From: Escherichia phage vB_vPM_PD112
Reading direction: 5' to 3' (one strand)
Sequence record: NC_054928.1
Length of the DNA: 64,000 nt
Shown here: piece after piece, positions 9,932 through 54,315 of the stretch
Numbering within the stretch: position 1 is the first letter of the stretch
How the letters are laid out: each line of letters starts with the position of its first letter
The notes under the pieces: model-generated
Databases searched by the model: none
Seen by the model: the letters and a program-made list of their open reading frames with translations, nothing else
Told to the model about the DNA's origin: nothing
Position numbers and translations under genes: made by a program

Positions 9932-10135
9932 TTAATTCATATTGCGTTTAATAACTTCAACAACTTCTAGTAGTTCATCTTTAGTTGCGGTGTCGGATTG
10001 AATTTTATCTCTAATATCCTTAAAGCGGTTTTTAAACTCTTCAGCTTCTCCCATATCGAAAAAGCGTTGAATGATTCTATATTCTCGATGAACTGCTTTA
10101 TCAAAAAGTTCTAAATTTACTTTGTATGATTTCAT
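9932..10135 (-). CDS. rIIA.1: hypothetical protein, 67 aa
   Basis: Track ORF between gene 60 and rIIA; own early promoter at 10161-10190. Confidence 0.6.
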
Positions 10136-10160
10136 TTCAATATCCTCATTTGCTCAATTA

Positions 10161-10190
10161 ATTATACCACATCCTTGTGGTAAAGTAAAC
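10161..10190 (-). promoter_or_regulatory. T4-early-type promoter
   Basis: Minus strand GTTTACT (plus 10184-10190), 17 nt, TATAAT (plus 10161-10166); -35 abuts the gene 60 stop codon. Confidence 0.75.
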
Positions 10191-10722
10191 TACTGGCTCA
10201 TCCATTCTTTACGAAGGTCAGCATTATCTCCCATGAGCATTTCAAAAAGCTCTTTCCAATTCTCAGGAAGTTTAACAACATCATATACTGGGTTTTGAAT
10301 CATCTCACGATATTCAGATTTTTCCAAAGAGCCAAGTCCCTTAATATAACGGATGCTATGTTTAGGTAGAGCATCTTTGGCACTCTCATATTCAGCGACT
10401 GTATAAAACCATTCTTGTTTTTTGCCGACCTGAGCGATGATTACAGGAGTTTTGACAAAGCGAATTCTTCCTTGTTCAAACAGTTCTGGCCAATTACTAA
10501 AAAATCCGAGCAGAGAAGGATAAATAGAACCTAATCCAATAATCTCTTAATTATGAGGTATTTCTATAGATAGCCCGAAGGCTATCCATCGTGATCTGCG
10601 TCTGTCATAATAGCGACATTCGCATAGTTCATTGAAGAGGATTTAATAGAACGACGAACATTGTTCTGCAATTTATATTTTTTCATATCAACGCTAGAAG
10701 AATCAATTTTTACAAATTTCAT
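10190..10722 (-). CDS. 60: DNA topoisomerase II subunit gp60, made by 50-nt translational bypass
   Basis: Codons 1-46 at 10722-10585 (MKFVKIDSS...TDADHDG), then UAG; decoding resumes at UUA 10534 (LGSIYPSLLGFFSNWPELFEQGRIRF...MSQ) to stop 10190-10192; 160 aa total as in T4. Confidence 0.95.
10535..10584 (-). other. gene 60 coding gap (ribosome bypass element)
   Basis: Take-off GGA 10585-10587, stop UAG 10582-10584, take-off hairpin UAGCCUUCGGGCUA, landing GGA 10535-10537. Confidence 0.9.
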
Positions 10723-11521
10723 TATACACCTCATAGAACTTTTCATCAGGAATCCAACCGCGTTTAAATTCATTAAATGCTCGGCCGAATAATTTTGAAT
10801 TCACAGTTATATTATTAACTGATTTCCATTTAGCAACTCCTGTTCGTTTATAATGATCGGGGTCATATTTCGTGACGTACCATTCATATAAATTTGGTAT
10901 TAATTTTACAGCCTCTGGATTTGTCGCTGATTTATTATACCATGGTTTCGCTTTTTCAAGTTCAGCTGCTTTTGCAGTAGCAGCAACAGTATTTCCAATA
11001 CCAACTAATTTTTCAGCTTTAATGCGTGGATCATTAACATGAAGACGAAAAACTTCGCCCTTTTCATTTTTAAAGCATGTCATGCCTTTAATTCCAGGAA
11101 GCTTAACACCTTTATTAACACCACACCATTCCTTTGGGTTAAATGATCCTTTAATTAATAAGGCGCATTTACCCGATTTAATACTTCTCATTAAAACTTT
11201 ATCTTTCATAAAGTTTTTTGACCATTCAGATACTGCTCTTTGATGGTAAATTCTAGCAATTTCATATAATTTACTAGAACGTAAATATTTTTCAGTGTTT
11301 AACATTCTATTCATCGCATATGCCATTTCACGATTACGATGAATTTTATATAGTAGAAAATGTGCTAAAAAGTGTTCACGAAAAGTCAGTTTCACCAAAT
11401 TTTCTTTATCATCAGAACCTCCCATTGATCTTGGAAGGATATGATGAATTTCACCCTTAAATTTAGAAACGCGGGTTTTACCCCGCACTATTAAGTCATT
11501 ATAGATTTTTTCGTAATTCAC
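10703..11521 (-). CDS. mobA: MobA, HNH-family homing endonuclease
   Basis: 272 aa ORF with HNH motif EIHHILPRS...N...H near the N-terminus; no ATG before the motif (track start is GTG) and no clear SD. Confidence 0.8.
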   Translation of the reverse strand: MNYEKIYNDLIVRGKTRVSKFKGEIHHILPRSMGGSDDKENLVKLTFREHFLAHFLLYKIHRNREMAYAMNRMLNTEKYLRSSKLYEIARIYHQRAVSEWSKNFMKDKVLMRSIKSGKCALLIKGSFNPKEWCGVNKGVKLPGIKGMTCFKNEKGEVFRLHVNDPRIKAEKLVGIGNTVAATAKAAELEKAKPWYNKSATNPEAVKLIPNLYEWYVTKYDPDHYKRTGVAKWKSVNNITVNSKLFGRAFNEFKRGWIPDEKFYEVYNEICKN

Positions 11522-13049
11522 CTACTGTTATCCATTTACCATTAATCTGTACTTCATCATTTTCATTTACGATAATTGTATCGCCATTTAGTTCGAAAGT
11601 AAACCACTCGCCATCTTCTTTTTCTTCAAACGCCTTTTCACCAAGAACTAATCCAGTGATTGCGCAAATATCAAATAGTTCTTTGTTTTTAAGCATATCG
11701 GCATATGACATACCCCAGCTATTAAGAACTTTACCGCGCAATGGATAACCACCATGAAGTTCTTTATCACGAACATCAATAAGATATCCAATAGCAGAAT
11801 CACCCTCAGTCAAGAAAAGAGTAGTATCAGCATCTTTACCACAAAGATTCGCTTTGATATGTTTATGAACCTTAGCTTTAGAAGCCTTTTTAGCTGCTTT
11901 AGTTTCTGCTGCTTTTTCTGCCGCCAATTTACGAGCCAAAGCAGCTTCGATAATCGGCATTAGAATTGCTTCATTATTTAGAATAGCGCGTGAAATCTTT
12001 TTAGCATCAAGCTGAATATGACTACGAATTTCACCAAAAGGAGAAGTAAGTCGTTCTTTAGTTTGAGAATCAAATCGCATGTTTTTCATATCACGGACAA
12101 ACATAACGATAGTCAAACATTCTTTGACACGTGCTTTAGTTACATCAATTTTGAATTTACGTTTGATTTGTGGAATAAGGTCTTCACAAATATCATCCAT
12201 AACACAATCAATGTGATGGCCACCATTCTTAGTATGAATGTTATTCACATAAGTTAATTGACGAAAACCATCCGGTGAACGACCAACAGCAATAGAACAA
12301 TTTTCTTGTTCTTGAACGATAGCATGTTCATCATACTGTCGTGCATATTTCTTAAAATTACCCTGAACCTTTTTACCATTAAAGGTAAATTGAATATCAG
12401 GATAAACTACTGCAAGTGTCTGGAGACGATCCAGTGTAATGTCAAGATAAACTTGAGATAGCTCATTAGTTTCAAATGACATAAAATCAGGAATGAAAGT
12501 AACGCGAGTTCCTTTCCATTTTCCAGGAATAGTTTCCCAGGATTTATTTTCCATGCCATTTGAACAACGAACTACAATATTATTTTGACCATCGCCGGTT
12601 TCACCGACAAACATCACAGAAAAAATATTAGTTAAACTAGAACCAACACCATTCATACCACCAGTGACGCGTTCTTTATCATCACCGAAGTTACCACCTG
12701 CTTTTGGAATAGTCCATGCAGCAACTGGACCAGGAATTTCTTCACCGGTAGGTGTTTTAACCATCGCCTGTGGAATACCGCGACCGTTATCTTCAACTGT
12801 TACTTGATTGTTTTTAATAGTAACATTAATTTTATTTGCGAATTTAAACTTAGTACGAATACCTTCATCTACTGAGTTATCGATAATTTCATCAATAAGC
12901 TTAACAAGACCAGGTACATACTGAACACTTTCCCATTTACCAAACAGAAAGCGCTCATGCATTTCATTAGCTGAAGAGCCAATGTACATGCCGCTACGCT
13001 TTTTGATATGTTCAATATCGCTCAGAATTTTAATTTCATTCTTAATCAT
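11499..13049 (-). CDS. 39: DNA topoisomerase II large subunit (GyrB-like ATPase)
   Basis: 516 aa from the ATG after SD GAGGA (track adds an upstream GTG); GHKL and TOPRIM motifs. Confidence 0.95.
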   Translation of the reverse strand: MIKNEIKILSDIEHIKKRSGMYIGSSANEMHERFLFGKWESVQYVPGLVKLIDEIIDNSVDEGIRTKFKFANKINVTIKNNQVTVEDNGRGIPQAMVKTPTGEEIPGPVAAWTIPKAGGNFGDDKERVTGGMNGVGSSLTNIFSVMFVGETGDGQNNIVVRCSNGMENKSWETIPGKWKGTRVTFIPDFMSFETNELSQVYLDITLDRLQTLAVVYPDIQFTFNGKKVQGNFKKYARQYDEHAIVQEQENCSIAVGRSPDGFRQLTYVNNIHTKNGGHHIDCVMDDICEDLIPQIKRKFKIDVTKARVKECLTIVMFVRDMKNMRFDSQTKERLTSPFGEIRSHIQLDAKKISRAILNNEAILMPIIEAALARKLAAEKAAETKAAKKASKAKVHKHIKANLCGKDADTTLFLTEGDSAIGYLIDVRDKELHGGYPLRGKVLNSWGMSYADMLKNKELFDICAITGLVLGEKAFEEKEDGEWFTFELNGDTIIVNENDEVQINGKWITVGELRKNL

Positions 13050-13076
13050 CACTTATCCTCGTTTGGTTTCGGGAAT

Positions 13077-13100
13077 ATTATACTCCAATAATCATAAAGC
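13077..13100 (-). promoter_or_regulatory. MotA-dependent middle promoter upstream of gene 39
   Basis: Minus strand MotA box GCTTTA (plus 13095-13100), 12 nt, TATAAT (plus 13077-13082). Confidence 0.65.
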
Positions 13101-13101
13101 T

Positions 13102-13120
13102 AAAGGCCCGAAGGCCTTTT
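13102..13120 (-). other. hairpin with UUCG loop over the stop codon of ORF 13119-13379
   Basis: Minus strand AAAGGCCUUCGGGCCUUU; sits directly upstream of the gene 39 middle promoter. Confidence 0.6.
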
Positions 13121-13379
13121 ATTTAAAACGAATAGTCGAATCCTTGAAGAATAGTCCAGAACATACTGTTCCTTCTACTTTCTGCCCGGTAGGTCCAATA
13201 GCACGAAATCCAGTATGTTGGAAATCATTTTCAGAGCAACCGAACCAATTATATCCAGTGATTTCAATATTAGTAAAACCACTTGAAGACAAAACTTTGG
13301 TTGCATTATCAGCATCAGTACATCCTACTAAAGATACTGCTAATACTAATGCTGCAATAGAACGATTAATATATTTCAT
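13119..13379 (-). CDS. small lipoprotein, 86 aa
   Basis: Signal peptide with lipobox LVGC (MKYINRSIAALVLAVSLVGCTD); ATG start. Confidence 0.6.
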   Translation of the reverse strand: MKYINRSIAALVLAVSLVGCTDADNATKVLSSSGFTNIEITGYNWFGCSENDFQHTGFRAIGPTGQKVEGTVCSGLFFKDSTIRFK

Positions 13380-13382
13380 AAT

Positions 13383-13559
13383 TACCCTTTAAGCAAGTCG
13401 TAAAATCCACCATTCACATGCTTAGGGGCAGAGACTAACCGAATAGCAATCCGATGACAATCAGGACATACATCAGTATCCCTTTCAGAAATTTTCTTGA
13501 TTTTTTCGTATTCTTTTGCACAGTCTTTGGATTGACATTTATAATCATAAAGCGGCATA
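13383..13559 (-). CDS. small zinc-ribbon protein, about 58 aa
   Basis: Hand-translated MPLYDYKCQSKDCAKEYEKIKKISERDTDVCPDCHRIAIRL... with two CxxC pairs; coordinates approximate by 1 nt; not in track. Confidence 0.4.
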
Positions 13560-13560
13560 A

Positions 13561-13974
13561 TTATTCCTTAAAGTGAGCTTTCAACATCTGATACAAGGAC
13601 CATGCTTGTTCATTATTTTCAATAGTAACTTTCATTACCGGGAATTCAGATGGTTCAGTTACTGGTGCAGGGTCTTCCTGCTCTTCAGCTGCCTGGTATG
13701 GATTTTCAACTTCATCAAAGAATTCAGCTTCATTCGATGAAAGCCAAATAAAATCTTCATCCAAAATATCTTTACCGGAGGATAATGCCAATCTTCCAGT
13801 AGATGTCACAATTTTAGTAGGACGACCAAGATAGTCAATATCTATAACTTTAAAAGGTTCCATACCTAAACGTCGTGCATAAATTCCGTTTTCAGTATGA
13901 TATTTAATAAATTTTTCTTGAGCTTGTTTATTTTTAAATTGATACCATTTATTAACTTCAAATTTAATAGCCAT
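13561..13974 (-). CDS. hypothetical protein, about 137 aa (possibly goF by position)
   Basis: Track ORF starts on TTG; first ATG overlaps upstream stop (TAATG); name from T4 gene order only. Confidence 0.45.
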
Positions 13975-29616: not shown

Positions 29617-29961
29617 TTAAAAGAATTTAAATTTTTTCTTTGACCTTTTATTAAATGCATCTTGTAGTTGCATTGTAATACATTTTTCTACATGAGGAGC
29701 TAACTCAGCTTTTCTTTCTTGGTCAAGAACAGCAAAGTCCATTACGACTTTTCCATCAACCCAATCTAATTTTGTCACATACACAATGTGTGTAGAACCA
29801 TCTTCTAGTTTAATGACAATCTCCTGGATAACATTTTCCATGGCAGATTTAATTATCTTAAGAGATTCATTAAAAAGACGTTCTTTTCTTTCTTCTTCCC
29901 CCTCCGAAGAGGGGGATTCATCGATAATTTCTAGATCTAAATCTAAATCATCTTTATTCAT
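29617..29961 (-). CDS. 40: acidic protein, about 114 aa, probably gp40
   Basis: Position between uvsX and 41 as on the T4 map; track start is GTG, first ATG used. Confidence 0.45.
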   Translation of the reverse strand: MNKDDLDLDLEIIDESPSSEGEEERKERLFNESLKIIKSAMENVIQEIVIKLEDGSTHIVYVTKLDWVDGKVVMDFAVLDQERKAELAPHVEKCITMQLQDAFNKRSKKKFKFF

Positions 29962-37105: not shown

Positions 37106-37137
37106 ATTATACTCCAATTAAGGGGCCGAAGCCCCTT
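37106..37137 (-). promoter_or_regulatory. -10 element and UUCG hairpin between regA and 43
   Basis: Minus strand GGGGCUUCGGCCCC (plus 37120-37137) then TATAAT (plus 37106-37111). Confidence 0.5.
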
Positions 37138-48370: not shown

Positions 48371-48393
48371 GAAAAAGAAAGGCCCAGAGGGCC
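48371..48393 (-). terminator. intrinsic terminator after the nrdH-like gene
   Basis: Minus strand GGCCCUCUGGGCC followed by UUUCUUUUUC. Confidence 0.6.
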
Positions 48394-54099: not shown

Positions 54100-54315
54100 T
54101 TACCCCAGTTTGACCATACAATCGCCGTATTTCCACTTAGAAATAGACTTTTCACCGTTAGAATAATAAACTTCGAGTTTAGCACGGTTATTTTTAATTT
54201 GAATAATCTTTGCTGTCATCAAAGTTCCATACCCATAATAAACTGCAACTTCATCACCTACATATACCGCGCTTCCGCGGTAGTCATGGATATAATCAGT
54301 TCCTTCGAGCATCAT
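54100..54315 (-). CDS. hypothetical protein, 71 aa
   Basis: Track ORF, ATG start. Confidence 0.5.
   Translation of the reverse strand: MMLEGTDYIHDYRGSAVYVGDEVAVYYGYGTLMTAKIIQIKNNRAKLEVYYSNGEKSISKWKYGDCMVKLG

Follow-up and report, generated by a model that had tools for sequence, protein, structure and literature searches.

The mobile cassette that splits the topoisomerase gene of phage T4 is the textbook case for the origin of both the gene 60 translational bypass and the three-subunit T4 topoisomerase. This mobA/gene 60 bypass cassette was reportedly described by Bonocora, Zeng, Abel and Shub in PNAS in 2011. The MobA/bypass cassette has been extended to six or more phage clades (bioRxiv 10.1101/2022.08.31.505936). 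A second system of this kind is found in Aeromonas phage Aeh1, where mobE is likewise a Mob-type HNH gene that splits an essential enzyme gene into two cistrons, and where the products likewise reassemble through element-derived tails (PMC3045599; PMC2988022); the Aeh1 case differs in its host gene, nrdA (ribonucleotide reductase), and in having no translational bypass element. The mobE gene of T4 itself carries an internal intrinsic terminator in its 5' coding region (Wilson & Edgell, NAR 2009; PMC2790892), an experimentally mapped hairpin that terminates 30-50% of transcripts (PMC2790892).

Here we compare with these systems a locus of Escherichia phage vB_vPM_PD112 (record NC_054928.1) that lies in a stretch of 64,000 nucleotides, which we call the window. 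The region is very probably a T4-type MobA homing cassette located inside the Toprim domain of the phage topoisomerase II large-subunit gene. Sequence comparison gives 100% identity to phage vB_EcoM_CE1 and 97.5% to T4, and the layout of gene 39, mobA, gene 60 and bypass is the one annotated in T4T. Gene 39, mobA, gene 60, the bypass gap and a hairpin within mobA are all on the minus strand, as follows:

11499 to 13049, minus strand: gene 39, N-terminal piece of the topoisomerase II large (GyrB-like) subunit, 516 aa
10526 to 11636, minus strand: MobA mobile element, the insert relative to an uninterrupted gene 39, about 1.1 kb
10703 to 11521, minus strand: mobA, HNH-family homing endonuclease, 272 aa, with a GTG start at 11521 and its stop at 10705-10703
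11471 to 11486, minus strand: predicted GC hairpin GCGGG-GUAAAA-CCCGC at mobA codons 12-17, with the tail GUUUCUAAAUUU (from folding)
10190 to 10722, minus strand: gene 60, open reading frame, annotated in T4T as a joined CDS
10585 to 10722, minus strand: gene 60 codons 1-46, the last of which is the take-off GGA (from translation and alignment)
10535 to 10584, minus strand: 50-nt untranslated coding gap (from sequence, fold and a T4T misc_feature at the same place)
10190 to 10534, minus strand: gene 60 codons 47-160 and stop, C-terminal part of the Toprim domain and GyrB C-terminal region

An earlier, sequence-only reading of this DNA had proposed that a GyrB-like protein is encoded in two pieces, as in the T4 mobile cassette, and this anatomy is borne out at the coordinates above. 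The same reading had put both mobA and the bypass element between the two pieces; mobA does lie there, but the bypass gap sits within gene 60, after codon 46. Compared with the T4 cassette, the insertion site in the Toprim domain, the order 39 - mobA - 60, the 43-aa and 30-aa extensions, the recoded copy of the target and the signals of the 50-nt gap are all shared, and the layout agrees with that given for the element in bioRxiv 10.1101/2022.08.31.505936. We find no difference of substance: the host genome belongs to clade 1 (Tequatrovirus), and the flanking gene 39 is closer to cassette-free phages than to T4. That a cassette splits the topoisomerase gene is already known, and one more T4-like genome with it adds nothing new through the cassette itself.

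Gene 39 begins with an ATG at 13049 and ends with a TAA at 11501-11499, and its product matches the Pfam families HATPase_c and DNA_gyraseB. When aligned with the uninterrupted gp60plus39 of RB51, residues 1-473 of gp39 are colinear with that protein, and residues 474-516 form the insert-encoded C-terminal extension. The first 46 codons of gene 60 comprise the insert-encoded N-terminal extension and the 16-aa homR segment (10632-10585), which is homologous to the replaced parental segment and differs from it at about a quarter of its 47 nt. Codons 47-160 are colinear with RB51 gp60plus39 residues 492-605, and this second part matches TOPRIM_C and DNA_gyraseB_C. The Toprim domain is split between its conserved Glu (TEGDSA, in gp39) and its DxD motif (MTDADHDG, in gp60). 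The bypass signals comprise the take-off GGA (10587-10585), a UAG (10584-10582) and the landing GGA (10537-10535) that closes the gap, together with a take-off stem-loop with a UUCG loop, predicted by folding at 10589-10566. Positions 10500-10699, bypass gap included, are 100% identical to T4T.

The edges of the element were placed by alignment with the cassette-free phages RB51 and PhiZZ30. The boundaries are clean, with a 5' edge that is ambiguous between 11630 and 11636 and a 3' edge 9 nt beyond the bypass gap. A comparison with relatives that carry an uninterrupted gene 39, as suggested in the sequence-only reading, found the cassette in 40 of about 500 Tequatrovirus records (counting as carriers those that cover at least 80% of the query); the remaining matches, about 460 phages, have 95-99% identity, 63% coverage and one uninterrupted gene. 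Only 5 of 1110 positions in the insert differ from T4T (99.55% identity), compared with 60 of 1413 in the gene 39 flank (95.75%), and that flank is nearer to cassette-free PhiZZ30 (97.0%) than to T4T. The alignments support the insert as the derived state, with a sequence history that appears uncoupled from that of its flanks. As far as sequence identity can tell, an insert conserved above its flank in this way marks a homing cassette that has spread recently (Bonocora 2011 cited).

The mobA reading frame shares 23 nt with gene 39 and 20 nt with gene 60. Its product matches PHROG 655, "homing endonuclease", at E=2.5e-57, with PHROG 12434 also matching, and scores 20.1 bits against the Pfam HNH family PF01844 (E=7e-4), just under the 21.4 cut-off. 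The motif residues HH(26-27), N41 and H50 are present. The protein is 99.3% identical to the annotated T4T MobA, and its full-length identity to the MobA proteins of five other clades is 37-60%; except for the GTG-encoded first residue, it is identical in at least 18 other phage records. A tblastn search of the 64-kb window found no further Mob genes.

Two other accounts of the locus bear on whether it is a functional, inserted cassette. One would make mobA an inactive, decaying remnant, with the split kept only since gp39 and gp60 still work; the T4 reference record (AF158101) annotates mobA as a pseudogene, reviews call it defective, its Pfam HNH score falls short of the cut-off, and the endonuclease has been lost in other clades (bioRxiv 10.1101/2022.08.31.505936). 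We nevertheless judge a remnant improbable, given an intact 272-aa frame that recurs identically or at 99.3% identity in other phage records, the retained HH...N...H residues, and an insert far more conserved than its flanks, with a different sequence history. Moreover, the pseudogene in AF158101 corresponds to 11 extra single bases that are absent from T4T and CE1 in the alignment, and in the other listed T4 records the matching stretch is likewise 3001 nt long, with an uninterrupted 272-aa MobA match; the pseudogene annotation looks specific to that one record. The other account reverses the polarity, so that the split state is ancestral and cassette-free relatives lost the cassette by deletion. 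Secondary loss and re-fusion have been described for Aeromonas and Campylobacter phage clades (bioRxiv 10.1101/2022.08.31.505936), but for this locus we find such a history scarcely credible: the cassette-free relatives bear no trace of the C- and N-terminal extensions and have the 47-nt target segment uninterrupted and in a different version, the uninterrupted state accounts for most Tequatrovirus records, the Toprim domain is continuous across the GyrB family generally (Pfam domains), and the cassette reaches 99.55% identity where its flanks have about 96%. The sequence-only reading had named an inactive HNH frame, or absence from relatives through deletion, as findings that would count against it; what we see is an intact mobA and an insertion that is derived rather than deleted elsewhere.

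That reading had also pointed out that mobA has no ATG before its HNH motif and no clear Shine-Dalgarno (SD) sequence, and on both points we agree. Ahead of the HH motif the frame offers just two canonical starts, GTG 11521 (codon 1), directly preceded by a TAG stop, and GTG 11488 (codon 12). The predicted anti-SD duplexes are -3.1 kcal/mol for the first and +0.7 kcal/mol for the second, compared with -5.9 to -6.9 kcal/mol for neighbouring genes; a weak GGA SD is present 8 nt upstream of GTG 11521, at about 11532-11530. Homology would fix the start at GTG 11521. MobA of six other clades begins at the homologous position, with ATG or GTG and then N-Y-x-x-I/V-Y: the start codon is ATG in S16, Acinetobacter and Aeromonas MobA and GTG in Proteus and Shewanella MobA, and in all of these mobA overlaps the end of gene 39. 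At the protein level, codons 2-11 (N-Y-E-K-I-Y-N-D-L-I) are conserved among the MobA clades, MobE and hundreds of relatives aligned from residue 1. The GUG start, the 23-bp overlap, the promoterless status of mobA and a "ribosome scanning" model have already been stated (PMC2988022), and our search for the late promoter TATAAATA on the coding strand of 10000-13400 did not find it. A gp39-MobA fusion, in which a +1 slip on the A6 run (CGA AAA AAU, 11512-11504) leads into the mobA frame, was considered and rejected; it would not be a conserved mechanism, because the A6 run is absent in clades with ATGA overlaps.

Because the homologues start at the position of 11521, the hairpin is placed at codons 12-17, 35 nt past the start. 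The claim that the candidate GTG codons lie in or beside the hairpin is correct for the second GTG (11488-11486) and not for the first, which is 35 nt upstream. The predicted fold (11486-11471) has five G-C pairs and a dG of -9.5 kcal/mol. Including this one, there are 5 all-GC 5-bp hairpins in the 64 kb, against 0.3 expected, and the mobA hairpin is more stable than expected from synonymous-codon resampling (z=-3.2, p=0.006). Across 13 Mob-type genes, the 40-nt window with the greatest stability in the gene as a whole begins between nt +16 and +40 in 11, and in 11 of the 13 this window is more stable than synonymous-codon resamples (p<=0.034). Hairpins equivalent to that of mobA lie at codons 12-20 in 11 of these genes, among them some that start unambiguously with ATG; S16 and Stupor have no significant hairpin at the exact site.

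By clade, the hairpin is found in mobA of six of the seven examined, and also in mobE. Relatives whose insertion point follows gene 39, the primase gene or gp2, or lies inside gene 60, have it as well, with registers that are shifted and sequences that differ between clades. In one case the compensatory change is non-synonymous (Aeromonas AGG/CCU versus Acinetobacter AGA/UCU). A single alignment of all of the hairpins was rejected, as the centre of the helix shifts from clade to clade by as much as several nt. In register with mobE, 87.5% of cells are paired and there are 3 compensatory pairs, in a count of five sequences only. U-rich tails follow the T4-clade, mobE, SQ17 and MHG19 hairpins, whereas in phages of Proteus, Acinetobacter and Aeromonas the MobA hairpin lacks a U tail. 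A search of viral contigs for MobA elements, by protein scan and by a back-translated N-Y-x-K-I-Y-N-D-L-I pattern, returned only distant HNH relatives. Ten such distant HNH genes gave a weak 5' hairpin signal (all z-scores negative, 3 significant), so that a strong hairpin appears to be a trait of the mobA/mobE group of T4-like phages and not of the whole family. Nothing real was found by Rfam in 10000-13300, where the lone match, at 22.9 bits, fell below the gathering score of 86. We found no prior description of the mobA hairpin in the literature, in which Bonocora 2011 is known to us through secondary citation only.

We tentatively regard the mobA hairpin, at somewhat less than even confidence, as a homologue of the weak intrinsic terminator inside mobE, probably with an attenuating or insulating role. 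The mobE terminator, too, is a GC hairpin that falls within codons 1-20 of a Mob-type HNH gene that is promoterless, and both genes are co-transcribed with an essential upstream gene. The two helices have the same centre, nt 43.5 from the start, with compensatory base changes, and the mobE of KM16 shares the GUAAAA loop of the mobA hairpin. The differences are that the mobA stem has 5 bp and -9.5 kcal/mol, compared with 8-9 bp and about -15 kcal/mol in mobE; that its loop has 6 nt rather than 4; that its U tail is interrupted; and that 3' ends were mapped for the mobE hairpin, to which the mobA hairpin is likened from its sequence. Furthermore, nrdB, downstream of mobE, has its own promoter, whereas gene 60 has no documented promoter. 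An intrinsic-terminator scan of 10100-13300 called no terminator at the hairpin or elsewhere; the tail GUUUCUAAAUUU has 4 U in 8, and the scan asks for 5. On this comparison, the homology to the mobE terminator would be a modest extension of the known cassette.

The sequence-only reading had suggested that a hairpin at the start codon limits mobA expression, and this part of it is not supported: the start given by homology is 35 nt upstream, and the helix is in the register of the mobE terminator instead. The suggestion could be rescued if mobA started at the second GTG (11488), the last base of which also opens the stem, and hairpins that mask ribosome-binding sites are a known theme among T4 homing endonucleases (PMC2988022). 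In I-TevI, I-TevII, I-TevIII, segB and Aeh1 mobE, RNA structure at the 5' end is thought to hold the endonuclease low (PMC2988022). The I-TevI/segB-type hairpins contain the SD, the start codon or both, whereas the mobA hairpin contains neither, with the start at 11521, the stem from 11486 and the SD outside the stem. Initiation at codon 12 is also at odds with the conservation of codons 2-11 as protein, with homologues in which codon 1 is ATG and codon 12 is not a start codon, with the lack of any SD at GTG-12, and with the equivalent hairpins inside the coding region of genes that start unambiguously with ATG. A masked second GTG thus seems very unlikely to us, and with the start set by homology the hairpin would not be a start-codon mask. 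A stronger contender, although still an unlikely one, is that the hairpin is selected for something other than termination. It might shield the 3' end of the gene 39 mRNA, through protection from exonuclease once poorly translated mobA RNA is cleaved, or it might slow early elongation, such that a stalled ribosome blocks the next initiation. Its position is conserved in mob genes that always start on or beside the stop codon of an essential upstream gene, many versions have no U tail, and termination would harm the supply of gene 60, mobA being promoterless with no internal promoter listed (PMC2988022). Against this, mobE, which provides the sole experimental data on a homologous hairpin, shows 3' ends at the U tract (PMC2790892), ends that would fit a processed, protected terminus only if the RACE ends are secondary, and U-rich tails follow the hairpins of the T4 clade, mobE, SQ17 and MHG19.

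Limited expression of mobA is still likely, through its GUG start, weak SD and 23-nt overlap with gene 39, possibly with attenuation at the hairpin. In the scheme that we favor, MobA nicks gene 39 where a co-infecting relative carries it uninterrupted, as established for T4 from the literature, and recombinational repair would copy the element into the nicked gene. The element would bring the gp39 tail, the gp60 head with the recoded target copy, and the 50-nt insert, which would destroy the MobA site and so block self-cleavage; ribosomes would hop over this insert, and the two tails would let gp39 and gp60 reassemble. Nicking, homing, preferential inheritance and bypass are taken from the T4 literature and from homology. 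Without a promoter of its own, mobA would be transcribed together with gene 39 and translated from GUG 11521 with an SD of only 3 bp. The most likely route is re-initiation at this GUG by ribosomes that have completed gene 39 some 20 nt downstream, and the hairpin probably attenuates read-through transcription or otherwise insulates the gene 39 mRNA, which would keep MobA low.

A broader proposal, on which we are evenly divided, is that the GC hairpin at codons 12-20 is a built-in cis-regulatory module of Mob-type HNH genes across T4-like phages, one that may have been kept or re-invented among these genes. If so, it would be a portable attenuator or insulator that allows such elements to sit behind essential genes undisturbed while nuclease dosage stays low. 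The homology of the hairpins offers a concrete handle on the self-limited expression of free-standing homing endonucleases beside essential genes.

Real termination at the hairpin would also lower gene 60 mRNA. The only promoter-like sign that we saw inside mobA is a MotA-box-like pattern at 10836-10809.

The gene for the topoisomerase large subunit is split into genes 39 and 60 by an insert of about 1.1 kb (10526-11636, minus strand), and the locus is laid out as follows:

Split topoisomerase locus (all on the minus strand)
Gene 39: ATG at 13049, stop at 11501-11499, minus strand; 516 aa, with HATPase_c and DNA_gyraseB domains
mobA: 11521-10703, minus strand; 272-aa ORF matching PHROG 655, "homing endonuclease" (E=2.5e-57)
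Gene 60, first part: ATG at 10722 to take-off GGA at 10587-10585, minus strand; 46 codons, with a GAGG Shine-Dalgarno (SD) sequence upstream and a UAG right after the GGA
50-nt gap: 10584-10535, minus strand; landing GGA at its end
Gene 60, second part: UUA at 10534 to 10190, minus strand; TOPRIM_C and DNA_gyraseB_C domains

This 3-kb locus is 100% identical to that of Escherichia phage vB_EcoM_CE1 (CE1; ON229909.1, Tequatrovirus) and 97.5% identical to modern T4 records. The T4 record with an annotated mobA (T4T) has the identical layout, with mobA as an 819-nt CDS overlapping gene 39 by 23 nt; the CE1 record labels mobA "hypothetical protein" and gives gene 60 as two unjoined fragments. The sequence-only reading had the coordinates and anatomy right, except that it placed the bypass element between genes 39 and 60 rather than within gene 60. 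Its match to the T4 mobile cassette is borne out by the T4T layout and by the published description of the "MobA element" (bioRxiv 10.1101/2022.08.31.505936), with which the element here agrees; in short, the reading correctly recognised a well-known element. Other accounts (bioRxiv 10.1101/2022.08.31.505936, PMC2988022, PMC11461880) credit Bonocora et al. 2011 with the homing function of MobA, the protective role of the 50-nt stretch and the idea of a mobile cassette. In the cryo-EM structure of T4 topoisomerase II, a Toprim insertion of approximately 70 aa forms an external pendant that probably aids assembly (PMC11461880).

Cassette carriers, taken as those with at least 80% query coverage, account for 40 of 568 matching phage records. 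The remaining close relatives, about 460 at 95-99% identity, reach 63% coverage and have the gene in one uninterrupted piece, which the RB51 record, for instance, names "60plus39". Aligned against RB51 and PhiZZ30, the insert has a clean 5' edge at 11630-11636, ambiguous solely because E-K-A continues in both sequences, and a 3' edge at 10526, 9 nt past the gap; gp39 gains 43 aa from the element, and gp60 gains 30 new aa together with 16 aa that are a recoded copy of the segment replaced. The comparison with uninterrupted relatives that the earlier reading had proposed therefore indicates insertion here, not deletion there. Nor does mobA appear, from its sequence, to be the inactive HNH ORF that the reading had allowed for: it is intact, and by tblastn is the same as in at least 18 other phage records at all residues but the first, read as Val from GTG. 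Within the insert, CE1 and T4T differ at 5 of 1110 positions (99.55% identity); in the parental part of gene 39 they differ at 60 of 1413 (95.75%), and there CE1 is nearer the cassette-free PhiZZ30 (97.0%). This contrast indicates recent transfer of the cassette between lineages, as expected of a homing element.

For mobA itself, the reading had noted the lack of an ATG ahead of the HNH motif and of a clear SD, and both points hold. A TAG stop lies immediately 5' of GTG 11521 in frame, and ahead of the motif's HH the frame offers just two canonical starts, GTG 11521 and GTG 11488. Anti-SD pairing is at best -3.1 kcal/mol, at GTG 11521 (GGA ending 8 nt upstream), and absent at GTG 11488, against -5.9 to -6.9 kcal/mol for neighbouring genes. 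MobA starts with ATG in S16, two Acinetobacter clades and Aeromonas phages, and with GTG in Proteus and Shewanella phages; in all of these clades the start is the codon homologous to 11521, followed by N-Y-x-x-I/V-Y-x-x-L-I, mobA overlaps the end of gene 39 by 4-14 nt, and no good SD was found. Alignments with hundreds of relatives begin at residue 1. Because the start position is homologous in other clades, we infer that mobA starts at GTG 11521. A 2010 review (Edgell, Gibb and Belfort, PMC2988022) describes mobA as a promoterless cassette that shares 23 bp with the ORF upstream of it. According to the same review, no other free-standing T4 endonuclease gene is predicted to start at GUG, and mobA is probably translated infrequently, by ribosomes that scan on after terminating.

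The overlap of gene 39 and mobA also contains an A6 run (CGA AAA AAU, 11504-11512, minus strand) at which a +1 slip would join gp39 to MobA; since the run is not kept in other clades, such a fusion is probably incidental. In four other insertion contexts (behind gene 39, nrdA, the primase gene and gp2; phage sequences L034-L037, gene starts 901, 601, 601 and 601), every Mob-type HNH gene begins 1-4 nt inside the stop codon that ends the essential gene ahead of it, and translational coupling looks like a family-wide layout.

The hairpin that had been proposed to limit expression at the mobA start codon (GCGGG-GUAAAA-CCCGC, 11486-11471, minus strand; -9.5 kcal/mol) occupies codons 12-17. It cannot mask the start, because its first base is 35 nt past the homology-supported codon; the proposed mechanism is wrong in detail, yet it pointed to a real structure. 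All-GC 5-bp hairpins number 5 in this AT-rich 64-kb stretch against 0.3 expected, and synonymous recodings of the protein give structures less stable than the mobA hairpin (hairpin z=-3.2, p=0.006), on which grounds we consider it statistically real. The only other perfect all-GC 5-bp hairpins, at 29898-29915, 37122-37135, 48381-48393 and 54267-54280 (for example CCCCCTCCGAAGAGGGGG and GGGGCCGAAGCCCC), probably act in termination or in RNA stability.

A counterpart is present in the sister gene mobE. The RB3/T4 mobE hairpin, UCCCGAGC-UCAG-GCUCGGGA, lies at the same codons, and this structure, 27 nt after the AUG, was shown by 3' RACE and RNase protection to act as a weak intrinsic terminator, with 30-50% of transcripts ending there (Wilson and Edgell, PMC2790892). 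In an ungapped alignment of mobA from CE1 and S16 with three mobE sequences, the helices share one register, with 87.5% of cells paired and three pairs changed on both sides; pairing drops to 55% or less once the partner is slid by one column. Judged by this alignment, the mobA hairpin is homologous to the known regulatory element of mobE; our literature search found no description of a hairpin in mobA. We surveyed 13 Mob-type genes of T4-like phages, made up of seven mobA clades, mobE-type genes from RB3, KM16 and one viral contig, and relatives from SQ17 (directly after an intact gene 39), MHG19 (after the primase gene) and ESh30 (after gp2). In 11 of them, the 40-nt window with the greatest stability anywhere in the gene begins at nt +16 to +40, and in 11 of 13 the window beats synonymous resampling at p<=0.034. 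Hairpin sequences and registers vary among clades, and one synonymous change in the 5' arm, AGA to AGG, is paired with a non-synonymous UCU-to-CCU change in the 3' arm. In relatives further removed, taken from viral contigs, the trend is only weak. Separately, a second stable structure at 11407-11446 on the minus strand (mobA nt 76-115) reaches -14.6 kcal/mol over 40 nt; it is the most stable window of CE1 mobA and overlies the codons of the HHILPRSMGG motif; in Stupor mobA the strongest hairpin is also just downstream of the usual site.

The homology to the mobE element, together with a partly U-rich tail (GUUUCUAAAUUU), suggests that the hairpin would act as a terminator-like attenuator. Against this role, the tail fails a simple terminator scan, several mobA clades lack any U tail, and no separate promoter is documented for gene 60, which lies downstream. 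The hairpin might instead protect the 3' end of gene 39 mRNA or slow early elongation, readings that, taken together, we regard as less likely than not.

Within the 3' part of mobA (10809-10836, minus strand), some 90 nt ahead of where gene 60 starts, a pattern match places a MotA-box-like TTGCTAAAT followed by TAATAT; should this be a genuine middle promoter, it would have a parallel in the nrdB promoter, which lies at the 3' end of mobE (PMC2790892). The "MobA pseudogene" of the T4 reference (AF158101.6; window 11182-11389) has 11 extra single bases relative to T4T and CE1, mostly G or C, and a few substitutions. The other T4 records listed have the same 3001-nt match length as T4T and an uninterrupted 272-aa MobA match, and the pseudogene may be peculiar to AF158101.6 or its strain. 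Phage CJY920 (PQ349265.1) has, besides the mobA cassette, another insertion of 914 bp close to the 3' end of gene 60, after window coordinate 10226, which encodes a further Mob-type HNH protein, of 265 aa (MNYRKIYDKLIAAAKNRS...). A near-identical gene lies directly after the intact gene 39 of Mosigvirus SQ17 (MW882907.1, 901-1698), and so a second homing endonuclease appears to target the same topoisomerase gene. Downstream of gene 39, the 39.2/goF region (13500-13900) is locally hypervariable, at 78-82% identity to T4T compared with about 96% elsewhere.
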